This document shows positions 5,325-21,487 of a DNA stretch of 47,319 nucleotides, one piece after another. The notes below the pieces were generated by a model. The model made no database searches, was not told where the DNA came from, and worked only from the letters and a program-made list of their open reading frames with translations. Every line of letters starts with the position of its first letter. The first letter of the stretch is position 1. The DNA is from Oculatellaceae cyanobacterium bins.114 (GTDB taxonomy: Bacteria; Cyanobacteriota; Cyanobacteriia; Elainellales; Elainellaceae), in contig JANRJA010000006.1 of assembly GCA_033764315.1 (NCBI GenBank), positions 1-47,319 of the forward strand, in the 5' to 3' direction. The position numbers and the translations under genes are program-made.

Positions 5325-5336
5325 GAACTCGTGTGT

Positions 5337-7094
5337 ATGACCTCAGACGTTAACATTTTGCTCGTGGATGACCATCCCGAAAACTTGGTGGCCTTAGAAG
5401 CCATCTTGAGCGGGTTAGGAAATCTGGTCATGGCGCACTCTGGAGCAGAGGCTTTGAAGTATCTGCTCAATCAGGAATTTGCTGTGGTTTTGTTGGATGT
5501 ACAAATGCCTGGAATCAATGGTTTTGAAACGGCCTCTCTGATTCGACAGCGGCAACGGTCAAGCCACACCCCCATCATCTTTCTCACGGCCTTTAGCACC
5601 AGCGACATCATGATGTTTAAGGGCTATTCACTGGGTGCCGTTGATTATTTGCTCAAGCCTATTGATCCGGTGGTGTTGACCTCTAAAGTTTCAGTTTTTG
5701 TCGATCTGTATAAAAAGAATGCTGAGATTCAACGGCAGGCCACTCAACTTGCTGTCATGAATACTGAGTTACAGCAAAGTGAAGAGCGATTTCGTCGGCT
5801 GAGTACGTGTTCTCCAGTGGGCATCTTTTTAGCCGATTTAGAACGGGGTTGTTTTTACACAAATCCTCGTTGTCAGAGCATTTGTGGGTTCACATTTGAA
5901 GAAAGTTTGGGTGACGGTTGGATCGATTTTATATATGCAGACGATCGCGATCGCGCCGTTCACAACTGGTTGAACTACATTCATGCCAACGCTCAAACGG
6001 AGTTCTCTGATGAATATCGCTATCAAACCAAAGATGGCACAATTCGGTGGATCACCCTGCGAGCCTCACCCCTGTTTTCAGATAACGGTAAGTTAATGGG
6101 GCATGTTGGCACCGTTGAAGACATTACAGAGCGCAAACAAGCCGAAGCCGCACGACTGCAAATTATTCAAGAACAGGTAGCCCGTCAAGAAGCAGAACGG
6201 GCTAACCGCATGAAAGATGAGTTTTTAGCGGTGTTATCGCACGAATTGCGGACTCCCTTAAATGCCATTTTGGGGTGGTCAAAACTGCTGTTGACCCGTG
6301 AATTAGACTCCGCCATGATGGAGCGAGCACTTGAGACCATTGAGCGCAATGCTAAATCTCAAGCAAAGTTAGTCGAAGATATTTTAGACGTGTCGTTGAT
6401 TGTTCAAGGCAAATTACGGCTTAATCCATGCCAGATCAATCTGATTCCATTGCTTGAAAGCATTCTCGAAACCTTTCAACCGATCGCCCTCGAACAACAA
6501 GTCCAACTCAAGTTCATTACACCAGCGGGCACAGCTCATCTGGCTTCTAATGACGTTGATTTGAGTTCTAGCTTGACCGTCAATGGCGACCCAGAGAGGT
6601 TACGACAGGTGATTCGCAATTTGCTCTCAAACGCGATTAAATTTACCCCAGAGCATGGCCTGGTTGAAGTGCGTGTGTCGGTCGTCGATCATCCGGTTTC
6701 AACGAATGGTCAATGGTCAATTGTCAGTGGCGAAGAACTGCTGCTCAATGACAAGGAACGACTGACCCACGACAATTCACCGGTTCATTATGCTCAAATT
6801 CAAGTGAAAGACACGGGCATTGGGATTGACCCTGACTTTCTGCCCTATGTGTTTGATCGTTTTCGGCAAGCCGATAGCACAACTACCCGTTCTTATAGTG
6901 GGCTAGGGCTAGGTTTGGCGATCGTTCACCACATCATCAAGTTACACAATGGCACCATTCACGCCGAGAGTGAAGGAGTGGGTCAAGGGGCAATGTTTAC
7001 GGTCACACTGCCCTTGGTTCAGCCCCAAGACCAGTCTCAGTGCGAGATTAAGCTTGAGGAAACGAGTCAGTTGTCGATCGTCAACGGTCAATAG
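5337..7094 (+). CDS. Hybrid histidine kinase (REC-PAS-HisKA-HATPase)
   Basis: N-terminal REC (LLVDD...LLDVQMP...LLKP), a PAS/PAC segment, H-box [30 protein letters not shown] and GLGLGL. ATG 5337 is preferred over GTG 5331; it lies 12 nt after the upstream kinase stop. Confidence 0.93.
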
Positions 7095-7117
7095 GGCGTC
7101 AACGGTCAATAGGGAGC

Positions 7118-7170
7118 ATTTGAGAATCCTATGAGAATCCCAGATTCGGCGAGAATTCAAGGATCTCAAA
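7118..7170. terminator. Imperfect hairpin between convergent genes, possible bidirectional terminator
   Basis: TTTGAGAATCCT ... AGGATCTCAAA inverted repeat between the stops at 7094 (+) and 7175 (-). Confidence 0.35.
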
Positions 7171-7174
7171 CTGG

Positions 7175-8302
7175 TTATGCCGGTTGCTCTACCCCGGCTC
7201 GTTTTTGCAACAGTTGAACGATCGAGGCTTTTTCGATCAACCCCACTAGCACATTATTATCTTTCAACACTGCCAGCACTGGAGTGGTCTGATCATCCAA
7301 CAGATTGATCACTTCTAAGAGGGGTTTGTCAGAGGGTACTGTGGGCAGTTGCTCCAACGGTTGAGTCAACGCTTGCACTTGAATATCCCACCAGTCGTTT
7401 GTTGGAATGGTTTTTAAGTCATCGACTCTGACTTCACCCACCAGTTGACCGTCTGCATTGGTGACTAAAAACTTTTGCCACTGGCGATCGCTGCCAATGA
7501 TGTGGTTATTAACAAACTCACGCAGCGAACTCGTTGCCACAATGATCGGGCTATCCGGATAGACCGCATCAGCAGCCGTCAAACCACTTAACTGCTCTTG
7601 AATTGTGGCCGTTTGAGCCGAACGCCCCGCATTTTGTAGTAAAAACAAACCGATGAGCAACGTCCAGAAACTACCGACATTGGTAAAGCCCAAGATCGAA
7701 GCTAGACCTAAGCCAATTCCTAGCCAACCAAAAACCTGACCGACTGCACTCGCAAAGGCGACCCCTTTGTAAGGTTTGCCTGTGATCTTCCAGACGATAG
7801 ACTTGAGAACATTGCCCCCATCTAACGGCAATCCTGGAATTAAGTTGAACAGTCCCAATGCCAGGTTGATGTAAGCCAGCGTTCCTAAAATAGAGGCGAT
7901 CGGCCCTGAGATCGGGGTGAAATAGGCGATCGCATTAAACAGTCCAAAGAAAAAGAAGCTCACTAATGGCCCCGCGATCGCCACTTGAAAGGCTGCACCC
8001 GGAGTTTTTGACTCTTCGCCCAGACTTGCTAAACCGCCAAAGATAAACAGCGTGATAGAGTTCACCGGAATTCCCTGACGAATGGCCACTAGACTATGCC
8101 CCAACTCATGGGCTAGCACCGAGGAAAACAACAACAGCGCGGTCGCTAACCCTAACACCCAGGCAATTACCCCCAATTGCGGAAATTGCACCGCTAACCC
8201 CCGACCAAAATCCCAGGTCACGAGTGCTAGCACCAGAAACCAGGAGGGGTTAATAAAGAAGGGGATGCCAAACAAGTTGCCGACGCGTAAGTTGCCGTCC
8301 AT
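7175..8302 (-). CDS. Site-2 protease (M50 zinc metalloprotease) with C-terminal CBS domains
   Basis: HELGH zinc motif, NLIPGLPLDGG motif, several hydrophobic helices and a C-terminal CBS-like pair. Confidence 0.93.
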   Translation of the reverse strand: MDGNLRVGNLFGIPFFINPSWFLVLALVTWDFGRGLAVQFPQLGVIAWVLGLATALLLFSSVLAHELGHSLVAIRQGIPVNSITLFIFGGLASLGEESKTPGAAFQVAIAGPLVSFFFFGLFNAIAYFTPISGPIASILGTLAYINLALGLFNLIPGLPLDGGNVLKSIVWKITGKPYKGVAFASAVGQVFGWLGIGLGLASILGFTNVGSFWTLLIGLFLLQNAGRSAQTATIQEQLSGLTAADAVYPDSPIIVATSSLREFVNNHIIGSDRQWQKFLVTNADGQLVGEVRVDDLKTIPTNDWWDIQVQALTQPLEQLPTVPSDKPLLEVINLLDDQTTPVLAVLKDNNVLVGLIEKASIVQLLQKRAGVEQPA

Positions 8303-8446
8303 GCCATTACCTCAAATTCGGCTTGATTAATTTTGTCTCTATCAGACTATATCCCGATCGTAACGGAGTATTGCCCATGCCTTTATCCACCTAGTGGATG
8401 TAAATACCGCCCTACTAAGGTCGGTATTCTTCCTGATCTAAAGTGG

Positions 8447-8552
8447 TATAGCACCTGAAGAGCGGGTCAGAACGGGGTGCAAGGGTTTTATCCCTTAGCT
8501 GGGGGCAAAGCTCCACAACCCCTTGTATCACCTGTTAAGACAGTTGCTATAG
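8447..8552 (+). mobile_element. MITE-like dispersed repeat, family A, copy 1
   Basis: Ends TATAGCACCTG ... CAGTTGCTATA form an imperfect terminal inverted repeat. It is visibly similar to 36803-36876 and to 41502-41586 (reverse strand). Confidence 0.6.
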
Positions 8553-8675
8553 AGGCATTTGCTGCTTGAGAGTACCTTACTAGAGCAAGGAACACAAGAG
8601 AGACAGGTTTTAATCCTGATAAGTTTGGTGAATTAGGGGGCAAGGGGGCGATCGCCTCCCGTGAGATAGGGCTTA

Positions 8676-9239
8676 TCAAGAACTAAAGATTGACTCTAAC
8701 AGTTGACCGAGCATGACAATAAACACTCGTGTCCAGCCTTCGCTGAGCCACACGGCAGTTTGGGGTTGTTGCAGGAAAACACAGTAAGCACTCAAAGCGG
8801 TTCCCGCAACTAATCCATAGATCCAGAGTCTCAGTTTGAGTTCAAAAGCTTGAGTATAGAGCCAATAAAAAACGGCTATTGCGATGACCATACCTAAAAC
8901 CCCGGTCATATGAACCGCGATCGCATACTCTGTTGAGGCTTCTAGCGTTGAGGAGTGAACCAAATGAGCCGCATATCCGGCATACCAGATCTGAATCAAT
9001 AGGGCTGGCAGACAGCCGACCCACTCAATCTTAAAGACCTGGATCATCTGTCCCATGCCATCAAAACACCCTAAAATCCATTTCCACTCCTCAGTGCGGC
9101 CTGTCATCTTGTTCCATATCTGGTTGCTCACGACGACCAGGGCAAACGCTAATAGCCAAGGCGTAAAACAAAGTAACGCGACACCCCAATACATCACCAC
9201 ACTGCCCAGGGCACAGCCCAATAACTTTAGAAATACCAT
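8676..9239 (-). CDS. Hypothetical integral membrane protein
   Basis: The ORF has about 4-5 hydrophobic segments. ATG 9239 is preceded by GGAGG at good spacing (the track starts at 9317). It lies downstream of and co-directional with the deaminase. Confidence 0.65.
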   Translation of the reverse strand: MVFLKLLGCALGSVVMYWGVALLCFTPWLLAFALVVVSNQIWNKMTGRTEEWKWILGCFDGMGQMIQVFKIEWVGCLPALLIQIWYAGYAAHLVHSSTLEASTEYAIAVHMTGVLGMVIAIAVFYWLYTQAFELKLRLWIYGLVAGTALSAYCVFLQQPQTAVWLSEGWTRVFIVMLGQLLESIFSS

Positions 9240-9329
9240 TCGCATTCCTCCTGCACTAAGCGATGGTTGTGTAACGGTGAGTGAGTTTGTCGTATACAGC
9301 CCATAATGAATCAACATTAACCCATCACA

Positions 9330-10688
9330 TTAACCCATCAGTTGATGTGCTAATCGGTTGTGTTTTTCCACTAATGTTTCCAGTTCAAGCGTGGTTAGTC
9401 GTCCTTGATCCACCACTTTTCGACCGTTGATAAAACTGTAATCTACCGTGTTCACCTGACAAAAGATCAGGGCAGCCACGGGATCATGGAGGGCACCTGC
9501 AAGAGCAGGGCGATCGAGGTTAATGGCAATAAAATCTGCCGACATTCCTGGAGCCAGGTAGCCAATATCATCTCGTCCTAAGACCTTTGCCCCTCCCAGT
9601 GTCGCCAATTCTAAAACGTCGCGAGCCGTCATCGCCGCTGCCTCGAGTTCACGCACCCGTGCCATAAGAAAGGCAGTGCGGGCTTCATTCAACAAGTTTG
9701 ATGTGTCATTCGAGGCTGAGCCATCCACCCCTAACCCCACTGGGACTTTGTGACTGAGCATCTGACGAATGGGAGCCATGCCACTGGCCAGACGCATATT
9801 ACTACAGGGACAATGGGCTACCCCAGTGCCTGTCTTGCCAAAGGCTTGAATGGCGCGATCGTCTAACTGCACACAGTGGGCGTGCCAGACATCCTCGCCT
9901 AGCCAACCTACTGATTCTGCATAGTCACCGGGTGTCATGCCAAAGGTAGCTAAGCTGTACTCGATATCTGACTTATTCTCGGCAAGGTGCGTATGTAAAC
10001 GAATACCAGGGTGCGATCGCGCTAATGCCGCCGATTCTCGCATTAAATCAGGTGACACCGAAAAAGGAGAGCAGGGAGCCAGCGTGATGCGTAGCATGGC
10101 ATGGCGCGAATTGTCATGATATTGCTCAATTAGCCGTTGGCTATCTTGCAACACATGGGCTTCTTTCTCAACAACGGTGTCGGGGGGCAGTCCTCCCTGG
10201 CTCTGACCCACACTCATACTGCCTCGACTAGCATGAAACCGCAGCCCGATCGCTTGCACCGCTTCAATTTCATCATCTAACGTGGTGCCATTGGGGAAAA
10301 TATACAGATGATCACTTGCAGTTGTGCAACCTGACAACATTAACTCGGCGGCTGCCATCTGAGCACTGATAAACACCGACTCTGGCGTAAGATTTGCCCA
10401 AATCGGATAAAGCGTTTGCAGCCAGTGGAATAAGTCGCAATTTTGAGCCGCAGGAACTGCACGGGTGAGAGTCTGATAAAAGTGATGGTGAGTGTTGACC
10501 AAACCAGGAAGGACGACATACCGACCCTGTAGATCTAGCACATCGTCTGCAGTTTGAGGCAACTCAGCGGTTGTTCCAACCTGCTCAACAATGTTGTCTC
10601 GCACGAACAACCCCCCATTTAGGATTTCTCGCCGGGATGCATCCATCGTTACTAGAGTATGAATATTTTTAATCAACAAAGTAGACAT
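9330..10688 (-). CDS. 8-oxoguanine deaminase-like amidohydrolase (AtzB/GuaD-related)
   Basis: PGLVNTHHHFYQTLTRA metal-binding motif, APCSPFSVS, HTHLAEN, HCPCSNMRLASG and GLGVDGSASND, all typical of 8-oxoguanine deaminase family proteins. Confidence 0.88.
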   Translation of the reverse strand: MSTLLIKNIHTLVTMDASRREILNGGLFVRDNIVEQVGTTAELPQTADDVLDLQGRYVVLPGLVNTHHHFYQTLTRAVPAAQNCDLFHWLQTLYPIWANLTPESVFISAQMAAAELMLSGCTTASDHLYIFPNGTTLDDEIEAVQAIGLRFHASRGSMSVGQSQGGLPPDTVVEKEAHVLQDSQRLIEQYHDNSRHAMLRITLAPCSPFSVSPDLMRESAALARSHPGIRLHTHLAENKSDIEYSLATFGMTPGDYAESVGWLGEDVWHAHCVQLDDRAIQAFGKTGTGVAHCPCSNMRLASGMAPIRQMLSHKVPVGLGVDGSASNDTSNLLNEARTAFLMARVRELEAAAMTARDVLELATLGGAKVLGRDDIGYLAPGMSADFIAINLDRPALAGALHDPVAALIFCQVNTVDYSFINGRKVVDQGRLTTLELETLVEKHNRLAHQLMG

Positions 10689-10743
10689 AGCAACCTAAAC
10701 ATCAGGGATGTGCTTGGTCTACAGCATTAACAGATGGTTTGAT

Positions 10744-10757
10744 GTATTAAGGTGCAC
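10744..10757 (-). promoter_or_regulatory. Possible degenerate NtcA site upstream of the deaminase
   Basis: The minus strand reads GTG-CACCTTAA-TAC-A (one mismatch to GTA-N8-TAC). An imperfect -10 (TAGACC) lies 22 nt downstream, and the ATG is about 55 nt from the site. Confidence 0.3.
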
Positions 10758-11068
10758 CGTTTTGCCCTCAACTTCAATGAGAGCAGGTGAAATCAGACGC
10801 TCGACAGCCAATATACAGAGGTGATGTGAAGACTGCTGGAATGATGGCTGACTAACTCCCTATCGACCATCTGCATTATTCACCACTCACCCGTTGATAG
10901 TGCTCTAAAGTGCTCTCAAAGTAATGACTTTGACTGGATATCACGTCAGCTACAGTGCACTTTGATGCATTCATCTTATTTGTCAAACTGTTGGATAGCA
11001 CTCTATTTGTCTTGGATCTGGGTGATAAGCTAACGACGGCAAAACTCGTTGTTGTAAGTCCCCTTGTT

Positions 11069-11641
11069 ATGAATGCAAACCATGCCCTTGAAAAGCTTAT
11101 TGCTGGTAATCAACGCTATGTCACGAGTCAATTGGTTCATCATCACCAGTCTGCTAGTCGAATGCGGGCGATCGCTGTGGGTCAACACCCCTTTGCCATC
11201 ATCTTGGGCTGTGCTGATTCGCGTGTACCACCAGAGATTATTTTTGATCAGGGTTTGGGTGATTTGTTTGTGATCCGAGTTGCAGGAAACATCTTAGATG
11301 ATGCTATTTTGGGCAGTATTGAGTATGCTGTCGCAGAACTGGGTACAGCTCTCGTTTTAGTATTGGGACACGAACGCTGTGGTGCTGTTGCGGCAACCGT
11401 CAATCACGCACAAATTTTAGGACACATCAGCACTCTGCTGAGTGCGATCCAACCGGCTATAGACCGAGCTAAAACCGAACCGGGTGACCTGCTGGATAAT
11501 GCAGTACGGGCAAATATTGAATTGGTGGTTGAACAGCTAAAGTCGTCTATGCCAGTGGCTGAGTTGGTGCAGCACAACCGATTAAAAGTAGTGGGGGCAC
11601 AATATAATCTCAATTGTGGTGAGGTTGAGATTATTGCTTAA
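11069..11641 (+). CDS. Beta-class carbonic anhydrase
   Basis: GCADSRVPPE and GHERCGAV zinc-ligand motifs, plus GLGDLFVIRVAGN. Likely start is ATG 11069 (MNANHALEKL); the track starts at 10955. Confidence 0.92.
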   Translation: MNANHALEKLIAGNQRYVTSQLVHHHQSASRMRAIAVGQHPFAIILGCADSRVPPEIIFDQGLGDLFVIRVAGNILDDAILGSIEYAVAELGTALVLVLGHERCGAVAATVNHAQILGHISTLLSAIQPAIDRAKTEPGDLLDNAVRANIELVVEQLKSSMPVAELVQHNRLKVVGAQYNLNCGEVEIIA

Positions 11642-11783
11642 AAGTAGCGGTGGCGATCGCCCTTTAGGACTGCCGATATACTAATTTGTTAGACTGCTTT
11701 TAAAAGCTAAAAATCTTTAACAGTATTGGTTAGGCTACGCTACCTTATCCTACAAAAAATCAGCAATTTTTAGGGTTGCTGCG

Positions 11784-12095
11784 CTACTGCTTTGAAGAAA
11801 ACCAAAATTCAATTTCAGAGGTTGGTTCATCAAAACGAGCGGCATGAGTGGCTTGAGCAGGCACATGATACCACTCTCCAGCTTTATACCGAGTTTCGGC
11901 ACCATCCATGATGAGAATTAGCTCTCCCTGAGTAATCACCCCCACATTATCAGTGTTATGGGTGTGGGGTGGAATGATTGTTCCCGCTGGGTAGGATGCA
12001 AACAATACATCGCAATTTTTGGCTTCTAACTTGAAGGCATCAAACGGGCCATCAAATTGAGGGAGCGATCGCAATTGCTGAGGAAAGTGAGTCAT
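11784..12095 (-). CDS. Cupin domain protein
   Basis: PPHTH...G.L and GEWYHVPAQATH cupin motifs 1 and 2; 103 aa. Confidence 0.85.
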   Translation of the reverse strand: MTHFPQQLRSLPQFDGPFDAFKLEAKNCDVLFASYPAGTIIPPHTHNTDNVGVITQGELILIMDGAETRYKAGEWYHVPAQATHAARFDEPTSEIEFWFSSKQ

Positions 12096-12285
12096 GATCT
12101 ATATCCTTGTGAGAGTTTATAAGGTAGGCTTTGACAACTGTTGCAGGGGCTGAGATCGCTTTGAGAGGATGTCTTAACAGACTAGGTTTTGGCAGCATTT
12201 AGGCGGCATTAGCGACCAACGTTGCAGACGTTCGGCGATTCTCAGACGTTCGGCGAAGCTCAGTTGAGCTGTCAAACCATCGAAC

Positions 12286-12390
12286 GCTACAAAGGCAAAA
12301 ACCTGCCTTCGCAAGTTGCAGAAAGCCTGGATTGACTTGAGTCTGCAACGGCAGACTTGGTTTTTGTAGTCGCGGTTTTAACCGCCAAAA
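12286..12390 (+). repeat. Degenerate dispersed repeat, family B (related to the interior of the element at 22511-22673)
   Basis: Shares GCTAC...CTGCCTTCGCA and GCGGTTT(T/C)AACCGCCAAAA with 22551-22653. Confidence 0.55.
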
Positions 12391-12490
12391 ACGTCTCAGA
12401 CTACAATAGACAAAATTGGGAAAGCAAATCTTTCAAATTTCAATCTTTCAAAATCTTGCAGCATCAACTTGCAGCATCACTATTAGAACG

Positions 12491-13402
12491 ATGGAAGATG
12501 CTAGATCGATGGCCGTAGATCCTCTCAACCCGCTCTCTCTTGACGATGCTGTCTTGCCGATCGCTCCTCCTGTGTGGGGACGACGATTTGAGAGCGATCG
12601 CCTGTTTATTGAGTTGTGCCCCAAGCAACCCTATCAAGTGCGCTATCAACCCGATTGGCACATCTTAGGATTTTCATTGGAATCTCAAACTGGCTCTCAT
12701 GCTTTTGCCAGCGATCGCATTACGGCCTATCACGCCCCTGCCAATACGTTTGCCTTTACCCCAGCCACCTGTGAAACGTTTTCAGAGTCTATCCAGGGAG
12801 GTGCTTATCTGATCTGTGCGGTGTCTCCAGGTTTATTTGACACCTATGTGGATGACATAGGTGATCACAGGTTGGCTCACCCATCCCTTGCGTTGCGTCG
12901 GCTCTCCCATTGTCGTAATCGACATGTCACGGCGATCGCACGAGCGACTCAGCAGTTTATGCAAACCCATCCATCCGGGGGGCGGCTCTATTTGGAGGCG
13001 TTGGCAGGGCAATTTGTGACTCATGTGATTCTTGCTCTGTTAGCAAAGTCTGAGGTCACAACACCTCCCGATCACCTGAATGGGCTTGCATTCGATCAAC
13101 TGCTCGAATTTGTTGAAACTCATCTCTGTGAAGATTTATCCCTCGCAGTTCTAGCTGAGGTAGTAGGCATGTCTCCGTCTCAGTTTGTGCGCTCATTTAA
13201 GGCAACCGTTGGTCAGTCTCCCCATGCTTGGGTAATTATGCGTCGTCTCGGTCGGGCCAAAGCGTTATTAGCTCAGTCTAAGCAGTCGATTACACAAATT
13301 GCTCTTGATTGTGGTTTTAGTAGTCAGAGCCACATGACAATGCTATTTTCCAAACAGTTGGGTGTAACCCCCCGACAATATCGGACTGAGGTTAGGGAGT
13401 AG
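12491..13402 (+). CDS. AraC/XylS family transcriptional regulator
   Basis: C-terminal double HTH (LSLAVLAEVVGMSPSQFVRSFK...SITQIALDCGFSSQSHMTMLFSKQLGVTPRQYR). The start is uncertain (ATG 12491 or 12509). It is divergent from the cupin. Confidence 0.92.
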   Translation: MEDARSMAVDPLNPLSLDDAVLPIAPPVWGRRFESDRLFIELCPKQPYQVRYQPDWHILGFSLESQTGSHAFASDRITAYHAPANTFAFTPATCETFSESIQGGAYLICAVSPGLFDTYVDDIGDHRLAHPSLALRRLSHCRNRHVTAIARATQQFMQTHPSGGRLYLEALAGQFVTHVILALLAKSEVTTPPDHLNGLAFDQLLEFVETHLCEDLSLAVLAEVVGMSPSQFVRSFKATVGQSPHAWVIMRRLGRAKALLAQSKQSITQIALDCGFSSQSHMTMLFSKQLGVTPRQYRTEVRE

Positions 13403-13409
13403 ATCATTA

Positions 13410-13423
13410 GTAATAATTAATAC
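13410..13423 (+). promoter_or_regulatory. NtcA-binding site
   Basis: Perfect GTA-N8-TAC (GTA ATAATTAA TAC, followed by A), about 150 nt upstream of the riboswitch. Confidence 0.6.
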
Positions 13424-13572
13424 AATCTTGAGGGCCATCCTCATGCGTATATGATATTGAGCATTCCACTGGCTCAATGGATCGAATACCTTAATTTGAA
13501 TACCTTATAAAAGTAAAATTAATTCCCATTCTTAGAAATGACCACTTGAGGTCAAACAGTAAAATAACTATC

Positions 13573-13689
13573 GCCTCTAGGGTTCCGGCTGAGCATCAAT
13601 GTTGGCAGTGCTGGTCCGAGAGAGGCAAGCTGGTTAAAATCGCTATCCGTGATTTAAACAAGCTACACGGCGGGATAAAAGCCCGGGAG
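13573..13689 (+). ncRNA. Guanidine-I riboswitch (ykkC-yxkD, subtype 1) aptamer
   Basis: It has the conserved blocks CTAGGGTTCCG, CTGGTCCGAGAG and ACACGGCGGGATAAAAGCCCGGGAG. P1 is GCCTCT/AGAGGC, with a P1 extension hairpin at 13588-13609 and P2 at 13628-13664. A TAAAAT -10 candidate at 13560-13565 would place the start of transcription at the aptamer 5' end. Confidence 0.93.
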
Positions 13690-13739
13690 AAGTCAGCCAT
13701 CTGGTTTAAAGGTGGGGCTTTCCTGGGCTTTGTTGTATT
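13678..13739 (+). terminator. Riboswitch expression platform: terminator hairpin overlapping the aptamer 3' end
   Basis: AAAGCCCGGGAGAAGTC pairs with GGCTTTCCTGGGCTTT, with an inner stem CCATCT/AGGTGG, followed by T-rich GTTGTATT. It is mutually exclusive with aptamer P3. Confidence 0.75.
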
Positions 13740-13777
13740 GCATGTGCCCAATTTTTCTTTTTGTTGAGGGATTGCCA

Positions 13778-14737
13778 ATGACTGCATCGATTCAAGCGAA
13801 CACTGTTGAGCCAATTAACTTTGTGATCAATCAACCCGCACCGGGCAATCTCGATGTTCGTTGGATTCACGGCTCCATCTCAGCCAAGCACAACACGGAT
13901 CCTGACATTCAAGTTCACGCCTATAACGACCATACCTACATCTTGCGTCAAAACATGGCGGTGCATTACGAAGCACCGTTTATGTTTCTCTTATTTGGCA
14001 ACGATCGCGCCATTTTACTCGATACAGGATCAACGCGATCGCCTGAGTTCTTTCCATTGCGTCAAACGGTGGATGACTTGATAGATCAATGGTTAATCAA
14101 AAATCCGCGTGACAATTACTCCCTGGTGGTTGCCCACACCCACCTGCATCGGGATCACTTTGAGGGCGATCCTCAGTTTTTTGACCGCCCCAATACCCAG
14201 ATCGTCGGTCACAGCTTGGCTGAAACGATCGAGTTTTATGGGTTTCAAGATTGGGCAAATGAAGTTGTGCCATTTGACTTGGGGGGGCGAGTCTTGCAAG
14301 TGATGGGCACTCCCGGTCATGAGGATGCAGAAGTGTCGATTTATGACCCCTATACGCAAATCTTTTTCACAGGAGACTTGCTCTACCCGGGTCGCCTCTA
14401 CATTCGTGACTGGAATGCCTTCCGCAACAGTATCGATCGAATCGTTGCCTTTACAGATACCCACCCAATCACGCACCTACTCGGATGCCATGTGGAGATG
14501 TCGATCTATCCTCGGTTGGACTACTTAATTCGCACCAACTATCAACCCTATGAACGTCCCTTAGAAATGACTGTGGCACAGTTGCATTCGGTCAAAGCGG
14601 CGATCGCCCAGGTTAATGGTCAACCGGGAATCCATGTCTTTGACGACTACATCCTCTACAACGGCGTCCCTGATCGCTACTTTAGTTACGAAAATATGGA
14701 CCCCAATGCGGCCCCCGGCGATCTTCGACCTGCTTAA
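13778..14737 (+). CDS. Metallo-beta-lactamase (MBL) fold metallo-hydrolase, riboswitch-controlled
   Basis: LLDTG, HLHRDH (HxHxDH), TPGH, TGDLL and GCH motifs. ATG 13778 has GAGGGA upstream; the track start at 13712 falls inside the terminator. Confidence 0.9.
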   Translation: MTASIQANTVEPINFVINQPAPGNLDVRWIHGSISAKHNTDPDIQVHAYNDHTYILRQNMAVHYEAPFMFLLFGNDRAILLDTGSTRSPEFFPLRQTVDDLIDQWLIKNPRDNYSLVVAHTHLHRDHFEGDPQFFDRPNTQIVGHSLAETIEFYGFQDWANEVVPFDLGGRVLQVMGTPGHEDAEVSIYDPYTQIFFTGDLLYPGRLYIRDWNAFRNSIDRIVAFTDTHPITHLLGCHVEMSIYPRLDYLIRTNYQPYERPLEMTVAQLHSVKAAIAQVNGQPGIHVFDDYILYNGVPDRYFSYENMDPNAAPGDLRPA

Positions 14738-14801
14738 CTGGTTTTCAAAAAGTCAAGATGATGCCCGTCAGCGTGTATTTACCAACTCAGGAATTTGTAT
14801 T

Positions 14802-16001
14802 ATGAACCCATCTCGTCGTCTGATTTTGCCTCGTCGAAGTGTGATTCGCGGGTTACTTTCCTTGGGAGCCTTTGGTGTCACTTCCCAGTTCTGGACAGGA
14901 TGTACGGCTCCCTCGTCTACCTCCTCTTCTGGCGAATCCGCTAGTCCATCCACCGCTAGCATCGAACCCATGACCATCGGGTTTATCTACGTCGGCCCTA
15001 AAGATGACTATGGTTATAACCAGGCGCACGCAGAAGCCGCTGCCCGCATGGCAAGTGCATTTCCCTGGATTAAGCTCGTTGAGGAAGCCAGCGTTCCTGA
15101 AACAACCGCCGTTCAGGAGACCATGCGGAACATGATTGAGCAAGATGGAGCCAAGGTTATCTTTCCAACCTCTTGGGGTTATTTTGACCCCCATAGTCTA
15201 AAGCTGGCCGCAGAATATCCAGAGGTGCAGTTTTTCCACCCCAACCATCCATTAGAGCCGTCCCATCCTAAAAATGTCGGCACCTACTTTAGTGCACTGA
15301 TGGAGCCTGCTTATCTAACAGGCATTGTGGCAGCCTCGATGTCTAAAACGGGTAAGCTCGGATTTGTGATTCCCAAACCGATTCCAGTGGTCTTACAAGA
15401 AGTGAATAGTTTCACGTTAGGGGCAAAAAGCATAAATCCTGACATCACCGTTCAAGCCATCTTTACCGGAGATTGGTCACTGCCGCTCAAAGAGGCAGAG
15501 GCCACTAATAGCCTGATAGACCAACAAGTGGATGTTGTAATTACACGAGTAGACAGCCCAAAGACGGTGATCACAACCGCTGAACAACGGGGGATCTATA
15601 GCTGTGGCTATCATGTCAATGAGCAAAGTATTGCCCCTAAGGGATTTTTGACTGGGGTTGAATGGAACTGGGAGCAGATCTATAAAAACTATGCTGAGTT
15701 GTTTCAAAATGGCAAAACGTTGACTAATGGAGGGGTTCCTCAGGTTGTTGCGGGGGGGCTGAAGGAATCATTTTCCAAGATTTCTGACTATGGCGTAGCT
15801 GTGAGTCCTGAGGCAAAGGCGGCTGTGGATCAAGCTAAACAGCAACTCATCTCTGGAGAATTGACCATCTTTAAAGGTGAGCTAAAAGATAACAAAGGTA
15901 ATGTGGTTATTCCATCTGGAGAGGCTTATCAACCAGGAGATGCTCGCCTCAACTCGATTGATTGGTTGGTTGAGGGTATAGAAGGACAACCGACTAGTTA
16001 A
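14802..16001 (+). CDS. BMP/PnrA family ABC substrate-binding lipoprotein with Tat-like signal
   Basis: N-terminal RRSVIRGLL twin-arginine-like motif and lipobox WTGC, then GFIYVGPKDDYGYNQAH and other BMP family blocks. ATG 14802 is 64 nt after the MBL stop. Confidence 0.9.
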   Translation: MNPSRRLILPRRSVIRGLLSLGAFGVTSQFWTGCTAPSSTSSSGESASPSTASIEPMTIGFIYVGPKDDYGYNQAHAEAAARMASAFPWIKLVEEASVPETTAVQETMRNMIEQDGAKVIFPTSWGYFDPHSLKLAAEYPEVQFFHPNHPLEPSHPKNVGTYFSALMEPAYLTGIVAASMSKTGKLGFVIPKPIPVVLQEVNSFTLGAKSINPDITVQAIFTGDWSLPLKEAEATNSLIDQQVDVVITRVDSPKTVITTAEQRGIYSCGYHVNEQSIAPKGFLTGVEWNWEQIYKNYAELFQNGKTLTNGGVPQVVAGGLKESFSKISDYGVAVSPEAKAAVDQAKQQLISGELTIFKGELKDNKGNVVIPSGEAYQPGDARLNSIDWLVEGIEGQPTS

Positions 16002-16175: not shown

Positions 16176-16712
16176 CTAGATCTGATTAAAATTTGCAGGG
16201 CAAGTAAACTGACCCCTGATCAGTCTTGGTTCAGGAGGTTTAGCCGTTGTGGGCTGCTCAGACTCACACAGAATTGAAATATATTCACCGTTATGAAAAG
16301 CCGTTACACCCACGATGCTTCTAAACTTGAGTGTCCGCAATCCCAGGTGAAACCGATCGATCACTGTTGTTTCTGAGAGAGGGATTGCGTCAATAACAGC
16401 TCTCTCAGAATTGGCTTCGACTGAGAACTGAAACGATTGGGTGTAGCTGGAGGGAATCTGAAGAGCAGTGGTTTGCTGCAACATCGGAAGCGATTCGGCA
16501 AACGTGCCATACTTCTCACGATACTCGATCTGCATCGCTCGGATGAGCACAATTCCATATCGACCGCGATCGCTAGGACTGCCACAAGCACACCCTGACT
16601 CTGACTCAAAAAGCATCTGCAAGCCAACCAGACTGAGTGGCAGTAGAACGATTGCCAAACCTAACCGAGTAGAAATAACTCTTTTTGGGGTGCGATCGCT
16701 GGGAACAGCCAT
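16176..16712 (-). CDS. Type IV pilin-like G/H family protein
   Basis: Single N-terminal hydrophobic helix, IRAMQIEYREKYGTFA segment and C-terminal SILCES...P...CP pattern typical of cyanobacterial pilin-like G/H proteins. Confidence 0.7.
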   Translation of the reverse strand: MAVPSDRTPKRVISTRLGLAIVLLPLSLVGLQMLFESESGCACGSPSDRGRYGIVLIRAMQIEYREKYGTFAESLPMLQQTTALQIPSSYTQSFQFSVEANSERAVIDAIPLSETTVIDRFHLGLRTLKFRSIVGVTAFHNGEYISILCESEQPTTAKPPEPRLIRGQFTCPANFNQI

Positions 16713-16903: not shown

Positions 16904-18511
16904 TTAGCGATTCGCGGCTTCAATTTGTCGCACAACAGTTAATGCCGAATAGCTGACGCCTGCGGTGCCTTCGCCGGGGTGGGTAGAGTCGCCAACGAGC
17001 CAGAGGTGTTGAATTGGCGTGCGATTCGCAAAACCAAACGGGCCAAACGTGGGGATGCGTTGTCCGACACCGCCGACGACACCGCGATCGCGCCCTGTGA
17101 AGTGGGCAAAGGTTCGGGGGGTGGCGGCTTCCTGGTGCACCAATGTGTTAGGAGTCAGATCAAAGAATTGAGATAGACGGGCGATCGCTTCCTGAGTATA
17201 GTGTTGCTTCAGATCTTCGTAGTCTTGGCATTGCCACCACAGCGTTGGATCAGTGAAAGAGGAGGCAGTAATCGTTGCTTTTCCCGCTGGGGCACGACCA
17301 TCACCGGGGTGGCTAACAGAGACAAACAGGGAGTTGTTTTCACAGATGGGGCCGTTGTAGTCATAGAGAAATTGCAAATGGGGCGGGCAGTCAATCGGAA
17401 TGGCCGCTTGCTCAACACCGAGATAGACGACAAACGCACCCGACGAGGGGGGCAATTGATCGACTCGGCGTTGATAGCCGATGGGAGCCGCTTCTCCCAG
17501 GAGTTGCATCAGGTTTTGCACAGTGACATTAGCCACGACCTGATCCGCCTGTTCTGTCCAGATTTCCCCTGTGTTTTGATTACAGATGGTTACGGCGGTG
17601 GCTTTGCCGTTTTCAGTGTGGATCCGCTGCACTGTGTGACGCATTAATAATTTGCCCCCATCCCGCTCAAGCGCATCTACGAGGCGATCGCTCAACACTT
17701 GCATACTTCCCTGCAAATGCCATAGCCCTTGGGGTGCCTGAGAGACTCCCAGAGCCGTTGCGGCATACAGTAAGGCGGTTTCCTCTGCATTCACTTGTGA
17801 GTAAAGCTTAAGTTGCAAATCGAGGAATGTTTTGAGGCGGCGATCGCCCGCTAGCCCATAATCCCGCAGCACTTGACCCACGGTTGAAAAGGTGTGGGGT
17901 AAGGTCAGCAATGTGTCGGGACGAACCGCTTGAGTTAGTTGCCAGAAATCCCAGATGTTACGGGGCGGCAAGACTGGATCTCGTGCTTGAAAAGCCCAAC
18001 TGTGGCGAAATAAATTTGCCATCAGTTGCCAAAAGGCTTCACTTCCAGGAAACTGCTGCTGTCGTTCAGCTTGCCATTGCAGGGGGTTACGCCAAACCCG
18101 AATCGGATCAGTTTCACCGGGCAAGTAAACAGCACACGCCGGATCGCAGGGAGTCGCGTCAGGGGGGGCAATGCCTAGCTCTGAAAAGATGCGGTGATGA
18201 ATGCCACCCGGTTCTAATCCTGCCACTTGGGTGGCACCCACATCAAAGGTAAAGCCCCGACGCTTAAAGGTAGAAGCACATCCTCCTGGGGCGATCGCTT
18301 GATCGAGCACCAAGACCGAATAGCCCCGACGTGCCAATAAAGCCGCTGTGGTCAATCCACCAATCCCGGCCCCGATCACCACAACGGTTTGAGGTGACAT
18401 ATTGGTTGCAATAACTGGTGGTTGGCTAGGTAATGGACTTGGTCGTTGATTGGGGATCGGACTGGGGGTGCGTTGGCTTTGCCGTGCCTCAAAGGAGTAA
18501 TCGCGGGTCAT
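16904..18511 (-). CDS. crtD: C-3',4' carotenoid desaturase (myxoxanthophyll pathway)
   Basis: FAD motif VIGAGIGGLT, GGCASTFKRRGFTFDVGATQVAGLEPGGIH and C-terminal VGDSTHPGEGTAGVSYSA. An alternative start is ATG 18400. Confidence 0.88.
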   Translation of the reverse strand: MTRDYSFEARQSQRTPSPIPNQRPSPLPSQPPVIATNMSPQTVVVIGAGIGGLTTAALLARRGYSVLVLDQAIAPGGCASTFKRRGFTFDVGATQVAGLEPGGIHHRIFSELGIAPPDATPCDPACAVYLPGETDPIRVWRNPLQWQAERQQQFPGSEAFWQLMANLFRHSWAFQARDPVLPPRNIWDFWQLTQAVRPDTLLTLPHTFSTVGQVLRDYGLAGDRRLKTFLDLQLKLYSQVNAEETALLYAATALGVSQAPQGLWHLQGSMQVLSDRLVDALERDGGKLLMRHTVQRIHTENGKATAVTICNQNTGEIWTEQADQVVANVTVQNLMQLLGEAAPIGYQRRVDQLPPSSGAFVVYLGVEQAAIPIDCPPHLQFLYDYNGPICENNSLFVSVSHPGDGRAPAGKATITASSFTDPTLWWQCQDYEDLKQHYTQEAIARLSQFFDLTPNTLVHQEAATPRTFAHFTGRDRGVVGGVGQRIPTFGPFGFANRTPIQHLWLVGDSTHPGEGTAGVSYSALTVVRQIEAANR

Positions 18512-18919: not shown

Positions 18920-20224
18920 ATGACCCCAACTCTTCTTCCCTCCTCCGCTACATTTTGTTTAAATTCCCCTACGGTTCATCGGCTTCCCAATGGATTGACC
19001 ATTGTTGCTGAGCAGATGCCTGTTGAGGCGGTTAACCTCAGCCTCTGGTTGGGTATTGGCTCTGCGATCGAGTCAGATGCGATCAATGGCATGGCTCATT
19101 TCTTAGAACACATGATTTTTAAGGGCACTCAACGGTTAAAGTTGGGTGAGTTTGAACGCCACATTGAGCAGCGTGGGGCAGTGACCAACGCCGCCACTAG
19201 TCAAGACTATACCCACTACTACATCACAACGGCTCCGCGCGATTTTGCTGAATTAGCACCCTTACAAATTGAAGTGGCACTCAATGCTGCCATTCCAGAT
19301 GAAGAGTTTGAGCGAGAGCGATCGGTCATTCTTGAAGAAATTCGTCGAGCCAATGACAATCCTCGTCGGCGCACGTTTTATCGATCTATGGAAATGGCGT
19401 TCGATCGCCTGCCCTATCGTCGCCCAGTGTTGGGTTTGTCTGAAGTGGTGGAACGGTTGACACCGCAACAAATGCGTGATTTTCATGCGACCTGGTATAA
19501 GCCCCAATCCATGACTGCTGTTGCGGTGGGCAATCTGCCCGTAGAGCAGTTGATAGAGATCGTGGCAGAGAGCTTTGAGACGGCACAAGCCCACCGAGCT
19601 ATGCGATCGGATGCTCCTTTGCCAGCGTTGCCGACCCATGAACTAGAGCAACCGTTTGATCGCATTTTGCGCCAAGAATATGTAGACGAGAGCTTGCAAC
19701 AAGCCCGGATGGTCATGACCTGGCGAGTTCCGGGTATGGAGGATGTGGCACAAACCTATGCTCTGGATGCGCTGGCCTCTATTTTGAGTCAAGGACGTAC
19801 GGCTCGCCTGGTGCGTGAGTTGCGCGAAGACCAACAGTTGGTGACAGGTATCTCGGTCAGTAACATGACTTACACTACACAAGGGGTGTTTTATATCGTG
19901 GCTCAGTTGCCCCTTGAGAATGTGCCTGCGGTGGAAGCCGCGATCGCCCGTCATCTGCACCAATTGCAAACTGAGTTAGTCACTGATGCTGAGATTGACC
20001 GAGTGCGGACGGTGGTTGCCAATCGGTATATTTTTGCCAGTGAAACTCCAAGCGATCGCGCTGGATTGTATGGCTATTACCATGCGGTGATGGGTGATTT
20101 AGATCCAGCGTTGAACTATCCGACTTATATCCAAGCGTTGACTGCCCTAGATTTGCAAAGTGCAGCCCAGCGTTATTTGTCTCCAAATGCCTATGCCATG
20201 CTGGTGATGAAGCCTTCAATATAG
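18920..20224 (+). CDS. M16 family (pitrilysin-like) zinc peptidase
   Basis: GMAHFLEHMIFKGT (HxxEH), NAATSQDYTHYY and ERSVILEE. Confidence 0.92.
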   Translation: MTPTLLPSSATFCLNSPTVHRLPNGLTIVAEQMPVEAVNLSLWLGIGSAIESDAINGMAHFLEHMIFKGTQRLKLGEFERHIEQRGAVTNAATSQDYTHYYITTAPRDFAELAPLQIEVALNAAIPDEEFERERSVILEEIRRANDNPRRRTFYRSMEMAFDRLPYRRPVLGLSEVVERLTPQQMRDFHATWYKPQSMTAVAVGNLPVEQLIEIVAESFETAQAHRAMRSDAPLPALPTHELEQPFDRILRQEYVDESLQQARMVMTWRVPGMEDVAQTYALDALASILSQGRTARLVRELREDQQLVTGISVSNMTYTTQGVFYIVAQLPLENVPAVEAAIARHLHQLQTELVTDAEIDRVRTVVANRYIFASETPSDRAGLYGYYHAVMGDLDPALNYPTYIQALTALDLQSAAQRYLSPNAYAMLVMKPSI

Positions 20225-21307: not shown

Positions 21308-21401
21308 GACTCGGACCTACGCGATTACAACGCCCAAATCTTGTCAGGACCGGAAGGTAGCAGCAATACGGGATGCTTGGAATAGGCGTGGACTCCGGGT
21401 C
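21308..21401 (+). ncRNA. ffs: Signal recognition particle RNA (small bacterial type, 4.5S)
   Basis: Conserved domain IV TCAGGACCGGAAGGTAGCAGC. Terminal pairing GACTCGGA...TCCGGGTC is followed by a T-run, and an extended -10 TGnTATGCT lies at 21292-21300. Confidence 0.93.
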
Positions 21402-21487
21402 TCTTTTTTGGTAGGCAGTAGGATAAATTTACTCCTATGCTAGAGCTAATACCCTACCGCCAACCGTATTAAGGAGTGGTTTTAGCA

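Follow-up and report, generated by a model that had tools for sequence, protein, structure and literature searches.

The 47,319-nt stretch of contig JANRJA010000006.1 from Oculatellaceae cyanobacterium bins.114 (the window) carries, at positions 13410–16001, a Guanidine-I riboswitch followed by two genes that encode a metallo-β-lactamase (MBL)-fold hydrolase and a BMP-family lipoprotein. We found that guanidine riboswitches of two unrelated classes precede the MBL gene in two phyla and that, in a third, the gene keeps a guanidine-related neighborhood free of riboswitches; we therefore place the MBL family in guanidine biology. As judged from these sequence comparisons, the family is a recurrent target of guanidine riboswitches, and we put the probability that the window protein is a guanidine-regulated enzyme of guanidine metabolism at roughly 85%. 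The riboswitch itself is of a known kind; what is new is the target family and, in cyanobacteria, the design of the operon.

Guanidine riboswitches are widespread, and we know of only a few kinds of protein that act on guanidine: SMR exporters, the carboxylase with CgdAB and allophanate hydrolase, NMT1-type importers, and the nickel enzyme GdmH. Because the same reasoning from riboswitch to target uncovered these known guanidine proteins, a family that stands under guanidine riboswitches of two unrelated classes, in two phyla, is very likely a further piece of guanidine biology. The literature that we searched linked neither an MBL hydrolase nor a BMP protein to guanidine riboswitches; the gene tables of the founding papers may list "beta-lactamase-like" genes. 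Full-text searches returned no description of the pairing, in line with the initial annotation of the stretch, which had taken it for a candidate undescribed pathway. The word "lactamase" is absent from the available text of PMC12704784, PMC12186494, PMC12623156, and PMC7736828, "Bmp" from that of the first three, and "MBL" from that of PMC12704784, PMC12186494, and PMC7736828.

The initial annotation had read a subtype-1 ykkC-yxkD aptamer at 13573–13689, a terminator behind it, and two co-directional genes for an MBL hydrolase and a BMP lipoprotein, and each of these was recovered here. A search of the whole window with Rfam cmscan returned two matches above the gathering score, Guanidine-I and a signal recognition particle (SRP) RNA. 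The Guanidine-I aptamer (ykkC subtype 1, RF00442) spans 13566–13691 on the plus strand, enclosing the previously read element, and scored significantly, with 74.9 bits against a gathering threshold of 63 (E 1.3e-11). The match covers model positions 1–107 of 107 without truncation, and a whole-genome riboswitch search found it again. Neither the ykkC subtype-2 family nor any other ykkC-like Rfam family reached threshold in the window. The 3′ signature quoted previously coincides with the best-conserved stretch of the model (posterior "*" in the Rfam alignment), and the conserved core blocks CUAGGGUUCCG, GGUCCGAGAG, and ACGGnGGGAnAAAAGCCCGGGAG are all three exact in the window aptamer.

Folding with ViennaRNA revealed an intrinsic terminator behind the aptamer (13678–13740, plus strand), comprising a 22-bp hairpin at 13678–13731 (−31 kcal/mol when folded alone) and a U-rich tail, UUUGUUGUAUU. 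A simple terminator scan did not list this element because its loop and stem exceed the scan pattern. When 13566–13760 was folded, the expected P1/P1a/P1b and P2 helices appeared together with the terminator hairpin; the fold of this 195-nt leader had a z-score of −3.24, and none of 200 shuffles was as stable. Positions 13678–13691 are common to the 3′ strand of the aptamer and the 5′ arm of the terminator, whose 3′ arm, CCUGGGCUUU, is kept in the cyanobacterial loci L005 and L004 and in the gdmH leader of the same genome. Read from the sequence, a terminator competing with the aptamer 3′ strand is the usual expression platform of a Guanidine-I ON switch, and a 2025 review in J Bacteriol describes Guanidine-I as an ON switch in which the ligand blocks the terminator (PMC12186494, available portion). 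From this anatomy and the established mechanism we infer that 13410–16001 is a guanidine-inducible unit. In the absence of guanidine, the leader would form the 13678–13731 terminator and transcription would stop before the MBL and BMP genes; the guanidine-bound aptamer would hold 13678–13691, block the terminator, and allow both genes to be transcribed.

The first gene (13778–14737, plus strand) encodes a 319-residue MBL-fold metallo-hydrolase that matches PF00753 (Lactamase_B) with 49.8 bits against a cut-off of 22.7 (E 5.1e-13). Its ATG start at 13778 is backed by N-terminal alignment with L005, L004, and L006, and the protein has no signal peptide and was read as cytoplasmic. All metal ligands are present (H122, H124, D126, H127, H181, D200, and H238), and HxHxDH, H181, D200, and H238 are invariant in the cyanobacterial, actinobacterial, and proteobacterial copy-1 rows of our alignment A1. 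These residues mark the protein, by its sequence, as a hydrolase with a complete binuclear metal site from an uncharacterized family. The alignment leaves out L013 because its MBL frame contains an in-frame stop. This locus (L013:4001–4945), from a marine cyanobacterial metagenome-assembled genome, holds an MBL orthologue with the stop close to its start; the gene may be a pseudogene or begin further downstream, or the assembly may be wrong here.

The MBL protein matches no NCBIfam equivalog (best scores of 37–39 bits against cut-offs of 200–300). It is not a member of the glyoxalase II family TIGR03413 (GSH_gloB; 37.6 bits against 200.8), and it has no match to the arginase-family domain PF00491, placing it outside the GdmH family. 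The only solved relatives found by sequence were glyoxalase II enzymes (1xm8, E 1.2e-07). An AlphaFold (AF2) model built on a 40-row alignment (predicted local distance difference test score of 87; predicted template modeling score of 0.87) adopts the alpha-beta/beta-alpha sandwich fold. With VIA-align, it superposed on LACTB2 with Z 18.0 (root mean square deviation 3.1, 199 residues aligned), on B1 lactamases with Z 16–17, and on B1 lactamase and flavodiiron cores with Z 15–17. No specific enzyme matched the model in Foldseek searches of the PDB or among 48,161 chains compared with VIA-align, all matches being generic to the MBL superfamily; Protein Atlas returned only clusters named "putative MBL fold metallo-hydrolase," mostly actinobacterial. 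Compared with glyoxalase II, LACTB2, and the B1 metallo-β-lactamases, the window protein shares the fold and the full HxHxDH...H...D...H site but is only 14–18% identical, has an N-terminal region of its own (WIHGS.SAKHNTDP...RQNMAVHYEAPF), and carries a C-terminal extension.

Homologous loci were gathered from species-representative genomes, in which the family numbers 519 relatives, and the best 80 were scanned for riboswitches; clustering at 50% identity, with matches at E <= 1e-30, gave 297 clusters. One link to guanidine outside the window came from actinobacteria. At the Rfam gathering threshold, a Guanidine-III element (RF01763) lay directly upstream of the MBL gene on the same strand at 16 of the first 33 loci and in 6 of 9 further genera among 53 new loci. 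Our own Guanidine-III model, R1, built from 19 such upstream elements, added 5 of the 17 loci in the first set where Rfam had found nothing and gave 33 strong matches and 1 weak match among the 53 new loci, one of which is a duplicate. Altogether, Guanidine-III precedes the MBL gene at 54 of 85 distinct actinobacterial loci from many genera, with Rfam confirming 22 of the 42 scanned. All 39 R1 matches lay directly before an MBL gene, with none elsewhere in 307 kb. At L032, 4 nt separate the end of the element from a GGAGA Shine-Dalgarno sequence, and 13 nt separate it from the GTG start.

In Streptomyces the gene that follows lies on the opposite strand, so that the MBL gene stands alone as a monocistronic unit; xanthine dehydrogenase genes flank the locus. 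In each of three Streptomyces genomes, the only two Guanidine-III elements detected were that of the MBL gene and another at a different place; in G007 (Streptomyces cellostaticus), the sole genome of the three that was checked, the second precedes an SMR exporter gene. In this genome, where Guanidine-III leads into the MBL gene, a search for DUF1989 gave nothing, and the best GdmH relative, at 36% identity, is not a close one; G010, which also carries the MBL gene, likewise gave no match to DUF1989 and no relative of GdmH beyond 36% identity. Pairs of DUF1989 genes are present in 3 of 5 actinobacterial genomes with the MBL gene. The actinobacterial Guanidine-III regulon is described as SMR exporters and metabolic enzymes (PMC12186494, in the part available), and an MBL hydrolase is not named among its targets in the literature examined. 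The window shares with this regulon the MBL orthologues that its riboswitch precedes and differs from it in using Guanidine-I and transcription termination rather than a translational pseudoknot. As a separate observation, a Guanidine-I element of 73.9 bits lies directly downstream of the MBL gene in Luedemannella flava (L220:2184–2283). It fronts an Opp/Dpp-type ATP-binding cassette (ABC) ATPase gene (ABC_tran plus oligo_HPY), a type of transporter that is unusual for such a riboswitch.

Among cyanobacteria, the order Guanidine-I, MBL, BMP was found in the window, L005 (73.3 bits), L067 (80.1 bits), and L069 (73.2 bits), that is, at 4 of 33 distinct loci. In the cyanobacterial MBL clade, which is well supported, these four are split between two subclades, so that either the riboswitch was ancestral and was lost repeatedly, or it was gained twice. 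Among 150 other genomes sampled from the phylum, none had the MBL family, and none of the 42 other Guanidine-I matches in those genomes precedes an MBL gene, which bears out the earlier view that the target is unusual. Those matches are followed by gdmH-hypA (19), a gimA-like binding protein gene (6), DUF1989 genes (3), an ABC ATPase gene (1), and an open reading frame (ORF) with no assignment (1). Of 12 small genomes that belong to one family, at least 5 have an ORF of 105–113 residues behind Guanidine-I, and the two such ORFs put through Pfam are SMR exporters. GdmH is also encoded in the genomes of L067 and L069, and the L005 genome has a DUF1989 (CgdAB-like) locus under Guanidine-I control. 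Guanidine-I elements number four in G162 (the genome of L067) and three in G163 (that of L069); most carriers in the phylum sample have one.

The closest MBL orthologue (88% identity), from Cyanobacteria bacterium FACHB-471 (L004), lies behind a decayed Guanidine-I element at 3791–3920 that scores 46.5 bits against the cut-off of 63. The changes hit the otherwise invariant CTAAGG, TTCTGG, GGTCCAAGAG, GGCGGAAT, and AGCCCCGGAG, and the terminator arm is kept, a pattern that would fit either a dying switch or one of altered specificity.

A third line of evidence came from gammaproteobacteria, where none of 9 MBL loci has a guanidine riboswitch and all 9 show the gene order HupE/UreJ_2, MBL, MBL′. 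In the three loci long enough to show it, the pair is followed by genes for an NMT1 binding protein, a permease, and an ATPase; the binding protein is 35–40% identical to GimA of the window's genome, with WPGW..W invariant. Urea/guanidine carboxylase genes lie near the pair in four loci, and allophanate hydrolase and a biotin carboxylase C terminus are encoded convergently beside it. A "guanidine island" of ~20 kb can be seen in L141:2554–16653 together with L047 (contig C21 of G002). It comprises a DIOX_N/2-oxoglutarate-Fe(II) oxygenase, a 211-residue ORF, two DUF1989 (CgdAB-like) proteins, a 1222-residue biotin carboxylase, allophanate hydrolase, a TonB-dependent receptor on the opposite strand, HupE/UreJ_2, MBL, and MBL′, and then the NMT1 binding protein, permease, and ATPase. 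The guanidine carboxylase pathway (carboxylase, CgdAB/DUF1989, allophanate hydrolase, and NMT1 ABC importer) thus adjoins the gammaproteobacterial MBL pair and is under Guanidine-I in the L005 genome, whereas no pathway genes were seen near the window unit, and the window MBL protein shares no domain with the pathway enzymes. DUF1989 pairs occur in all five gammaproteobacterial genomes with the MBL gene, and none of the five has a GdmH relative above 31% identity.

The tandem arrangement is found at L041, L045, L047, and L049–L054 (e.g. L047:4001–4864 and 4927–5793). Copy 1 keeps all metal ligands, whereas copy 2 lacks every one (LPLGSDFSQ, PGL, TGN, and GGR), and a database protein of 605 residues (P0001) matches the MBL query in two stretches. 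These sequences suggest an active/inactive heteromer, for which the heteromeric metformin hydrolase offers a possible parallel.

The second gene of the unit (14802–16001, plus strand) encodes a BMP/PnrA-family (AtzT-like) substrate-binding lipoprotein of 399 residues, matching PF02608 (Bmp) with 126.6 bits against a cut-off of 24.1 (E 1.3e-36). We read from its sequence a twin-arginine-like signal (SRRLIL) and a lipoprotein cysteine in WTGC. The start at 14802 is backed by full-length tblastn matches from residue 1 at L005, L007, L008, L010, and L011. No NCBIfam equivalog matched the protein, and no permease or ATPase gene was seen beside its gene in the window. Of 33 cyanobacterial MBL loci, 14 also have the BMP gene, among them the four that carry the riboswitch, and no actinobacterial or proteobacterial locus that was tested has it; it is a cyanobacteria-specific add-on outside the conserved core.

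Among solved chains, the best match was AtzT (6pi5; E 7.5e-55 across 343 residues), followed by 3s99; with these purine-base binders the window BMP shares the twin-arginine signal, the stacking Tyr and Trp, and a Ser. AtzT binds guanine at 110 nM, holding the ring between Tyr45 and Trp194 and reading it through Ser97, Glu165, Asn218, and Asn220 (PMC6834077, available portion). We mapped residues by pairwise alignment and the numbering in that portion of PMC6834077 (constant offset of 5; residue types all agree). The window protein keeps Y72, S124, and W225 (AtzT Tyr45, Ser97, and Trp194), whereas V196, E200, R249, and D251 replace Glu165, Asn169, Asn218, and Asn220. By our own mapping, then, it does not hold the full AtzT-type set of guanine contacts (three kept, four replaced), the polar contacting or supporting residues being changed (E165V, N169E, N218R, and N220D), and unlike AtzT it has no transporter genes of its own. 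Twelve aligned MBL-linked BMPs share the pocket signature A170/V196/E200/R249/D251, whereas permease-linked paralogues have E or Q170, Q196, N200, H249, and D251, indicating that the specificity has diverged. The acidic residues beside the aromatic sandwich suggest, by analogy, a resemblance to GimA, which holds guanidinium between aromatic side chains and two aspartates (PMC12704784, in the part available); we regard this as a lead. According to the same part of PMC12704784, gimA and gimB mutants still import guanidine above 1 mM, from which a second uptake route is deduced there.

The genome encodes two BMP paralogues (57–58% identical), one on contig C87 and one on C21, and behind each lie two genes for BPD_transp_2 permeases; permease genes follow the BMP gene in 44 of 79 related cyanobacterial loci. 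The C87 operon (6400–15100) encodes, besides the BMP and the two permeases, a CN_hydrolase, an isochorismatase, an ABC ATPase, a second isochorismatase-family protein, and a stand-alone AH_C domain. Some of the 44 permease-bearing loci likewise have isochorismatase, ATPase, CN_hydrolase, or AH_C genes, and this gene content suggests uptake and hydrolysis of a nitrogen-rich small molecule. A third arrangement was seen at 10 loci (L068, L070, L072, L073, L075, and L077–L081), where an HbpS-like (PF03928) gene comes next. A further gene (cluster b12) follows in 6 of these 10 and, in L068, where it was checked, encodes a PAS histidine kinase; the BMPs next to HbpS-like genes have the same pocket signature as the MBL-linked ones.

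The same genome holds a second Guanidine-I element (contig C251, 75.9 bits) in front of an operon for arginase-family gdmH, hypA, a hypB-like gene, and an NMT1 binding protein, permease, and ATPase (gimABC). Funck et al. reportedly found such an order, Guanidine-I followed by gdmH-hypA-hypB-gimABC, in Synechocystis sll1077–sll1082 in 2022. An operon of gdmH-hypAB-gimABC is likewise described for Synechocystis in the available part of PMC12704784. Given the gdmH operon on C251, the window unit is an additional guanidine-controlled operon and not a replacement. Both units use the same riboswitch class and terminator-type ON platform, have an NtcA-type candidate site upstream, and start with a metal-dependent hydrolase gene followed by a periplasmic binding-protein gene. 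In the window, however, the hydrolase has the MBL rather than the arginase fold, the HypA/HypB nickel chaperones and the permease and ATPase genes are missing, and the binding protein is of the BMP/AtzT rather than the NMT1 type. The window MBL protein might work like GdmH but is not a member of its family.

These comparisons bear on several points of the initial annotation. It had described the known guanidine genes as absent from the window; no Gdx/SMR, carboxylase, CgdAB, NMT1 transporter, or arginase-family gene is found among the ORFs annotated at ~10.9–20.2 kb of the window, but the classical system is encoded elsewhere in the genome, on C251. Its two-gene module holds for the MBL gene, which belongs to a guanidine regulon, and not for the BMP gene, which has no adjacent permease genes and is confined to 14 of 33 cyanobacterial loci. 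Asked how often guanidine motifs lie upstream of MBL homologues, as it had proposed, the loci gave Guanidine-III at 54 of 85 in actinobacteria and Guanidine-I at 4 of 33 in cyanobacteria.

We propose that the MBL enzyme acts directly on free guanidine and would most likely hydrolyze it to urea and ammonium, as an analogue, with an unrelated fold, of the arginase-family nickel-dependent GdmH. Direct hydrolysis or consumption of guanidine is a tentative assignment, to which we give a little under even odds. The ligand sensed is free cytoplasmic guanidine, and the actinobacterial MBL gene stands alone, so that no dedicated importer or partner is needed. In gammaproteobacteria, moreover, the MBL pair and a metal-transporter gene occupy the place of gdmH-hypAB before gimABC. 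We also count in favor that G007 joins Guanidine-III to the MBL gene with neither a DUF1989 match nor a close GdmH, and that GdmH relatives above 31% identity are missing from all five gammaproteobacterial genomes. The BMP is a periplasmic lipoprotein from the purine-base-binding BMP/AtzT subfamily. Its probable role would be to bind guanidinium, or else a small planar guanidino compound, and to pass it on to either of the two ABC permease sets of BMP type found elsewhere in the genome.

Several observations weigh against this proposal. No guanidine riboswitch was detectable at 29 of 33 cyanobacterial, 31 of 85 actinobacterial, and 9 of 9 proteobacterial MBL loci, and the 33 matches found by R1 alone come from a model trained mostly on MBL-linked examples and are biased toward it. 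No solved structure, curated family, or assay that names a substrate for the MBL family was found. The MBL gene usually co-occurs with a complete known guanidine-degrading route, which would make a second guanidinase redundant and favors a complementary substrate. An old yellow enzyme (OYE)-type flavin reductase gene precedes the MBL gene at L007, L010, and L014, and a plain guanidine hydrolase would not need one. The ligands of the BMP subfamily are purine-sized planar rings, larger than guanidinium; together, the OYE reductase, the AtzT-like BMP, and the Streptomyces xanthine dehydrogenase neighbors hint at a larger, ring-shaped substrate.

Such a substrate would suit an enzyme that opens or cleaves a guanidine-containing precursor or adduct (an oxidized-guanine product, a creatinine-like ring, guanylurea, or an alkyl-guanidine) and feeds guanidine to the GdmH or carboxylase route, with the BMP importing the compound and the product guanidine acting as the inducing signal. 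We consider this possible but rather unlikely. It would account for the full guanidine pathways that accompany the MBL gene in 4 of 4 riboswitch-bearing cyanobacteria, 5 of 5 gammaproteobacteria, and 3 of 5 actinobacteria; in G007 and G010, however, which have neither a DUF1989 match nor a GdmH above 36% identity, no known route for the released guanidine was found. The MBL pair of G002 lies beside a DIOX_N-type 2-oxoglutarate-Fe(II) oxygenase, a class that includes guanidine producers (PMC12186494, part available), and there is one precedent for sensing of the product, ctdA (canavanine) under guanidine riboswitches (PMC12623156, part available). The actinobacterial gene is nevertheless monocistronic behind Guanidine-III and has no importer. 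The window BMP is nearest to AtzT, a binder of guanine and 2-hydroxyatrazine, and keeps its ring-stacking residues but not the polar residues that read guanine. As for the OYE reductase at three loci and the xanthine dehydrogenase genes around the Streptomyces locus, they and the BMP are each limited to one lineage and perhaps reflect synteny without function. An enzyme acting on an intermediate or by-product of guanidine breakdown, co-induced with the main pathway, appears improbable to us; carboxyguanidine, a ureide, or a guanidine-dicarbonyl adduct could be such a substrate, in the way that glyoxalase II clears a thioester. The co-occurrence with known guanidine pathways and the adjoining carboxylase, allophanate hydrolase, and DUF1989 genes in gammaproteobacteria are consistent with this, but those pathways are complete without an MBL protein (PMC12186494, part available), and the same G007 and G010 genomes offer no source of an intermediate among the routes looked for. 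The closest solved sequence relatives are glyoxalase II enzymes (1xm8) and there is a weak NCBIfam GloB match, yet the latter reaches only 37.6 of 200.8 bits and the structural matches are generic (LACTB2 Z 18, B1 Z 16–17).

We consider it very improbable that the riboswitch is a relic or hitchhiker, for example a copy of the gdmH leader, and that the MBL and BMP proteins are unrelated to guanidine. The switch does stand at only 4 of 33 cyanobacterial MBL loci, the close relative L004 holds a decayed copy (46.5 bits), and the absence of the family from all 150 other genomes of the phylum is consistent with recent acquisition. On the other hand, 54 of 85 actinobacterial loci, from many genera, have the orthologue behind a riboswitch that is of an unrelated class but binds the same ligand, and the gammaproteobacterial guanidine/urea context exists without a riboswitch. 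The window aptamer and terminator are intact, with a score above the cut-off, and outside the conserved core the leader is unlike that of gdmH, so that it is not a recent copy. The orphaned riboswitch that the initial annotation had allowed for is likewise at odds with the recurrence of these motifs before orthologues in two phyla.

Returning to direct action on guanidine, the complete scenario, in which the MBL protein is a second guanidine hydrolase unrelated to GdmH or another direct consumer of guanidine, is more tentative still, though we do not place it among the unlikely ones. If it is true, the MBL protein would be the main non-exporter output of Guanidine-III in Actinobacteria, recruited independently under Guanidine-I in some cyanobacteria and, in marine gammaproteobacteria, working as an active/inactive heteromer with a metal transporter and a guanidine importer next to it; the MBL-linked BMP would be the first of its family to act as a receptor for guanidinium or for some small guanidino compound. 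Once identified, the MBL reaction would add either a new route for assimilation or detoxification of guanidine nitrogen or a natural source of guanidine, and the latter would bear on the metabolic origin of guanidine, still open for most bacteria. The enzyme is easy to probe, being a single soluble protein of 32–35 kDa for which a brief substrate panel would serve.

Two further features lie upstream of the aptamer. A consensus scan gave a sigma-70-like promoter candidate (ATGACC-16-TAAAAT, 13538–13565, plus strand, 9 of 12 matches) that stops at the first aptamer base. Promoter-like sites are not commoner in the region than in shuffles (5 found, 4.5 expected), and we treat the match as a candidate. 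A regex scan found a perfect GTAN8TAC palindrome at 13410–13423 (strand not assigned), 143 nt upstream of the Rfam start of the aptamer (13566), a motif that we take to be the NtcA consensus. The same motif occurs ~120–180 nt before the Rfam start of the aptamer in L067, L069, and the gdmH copy of the genome, and is absent at the corresponding place in L005 and L004. Judged from this motif, nitrogen-status control of the window unit is possible; NtcA control is stated for gdmH in the available part of PMC12704784.

The neighboring genes encode a beta-carbonic anhydrase (10955–11641), an AraC-family regulator (12416–13402), a pilin-like protein (16176–16712, minus strand), the carotenoid desaturase CrtD (16904–18511, minus strand; 787 bits against its equivalog), and an M16 peptidase (18920–20224), and none of them is kept beside the MBL gene in other genomes. 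The AraC regulator was considered as a member of the system and rejected, as its matches were at the level of the helix-turn-helix only and at 2 of 58 loci. The SRP RNA, at 21308–21404 of the window, is the bacterial small form (RF00169, 59.3 bits), an ordinary housekeeping RNA.

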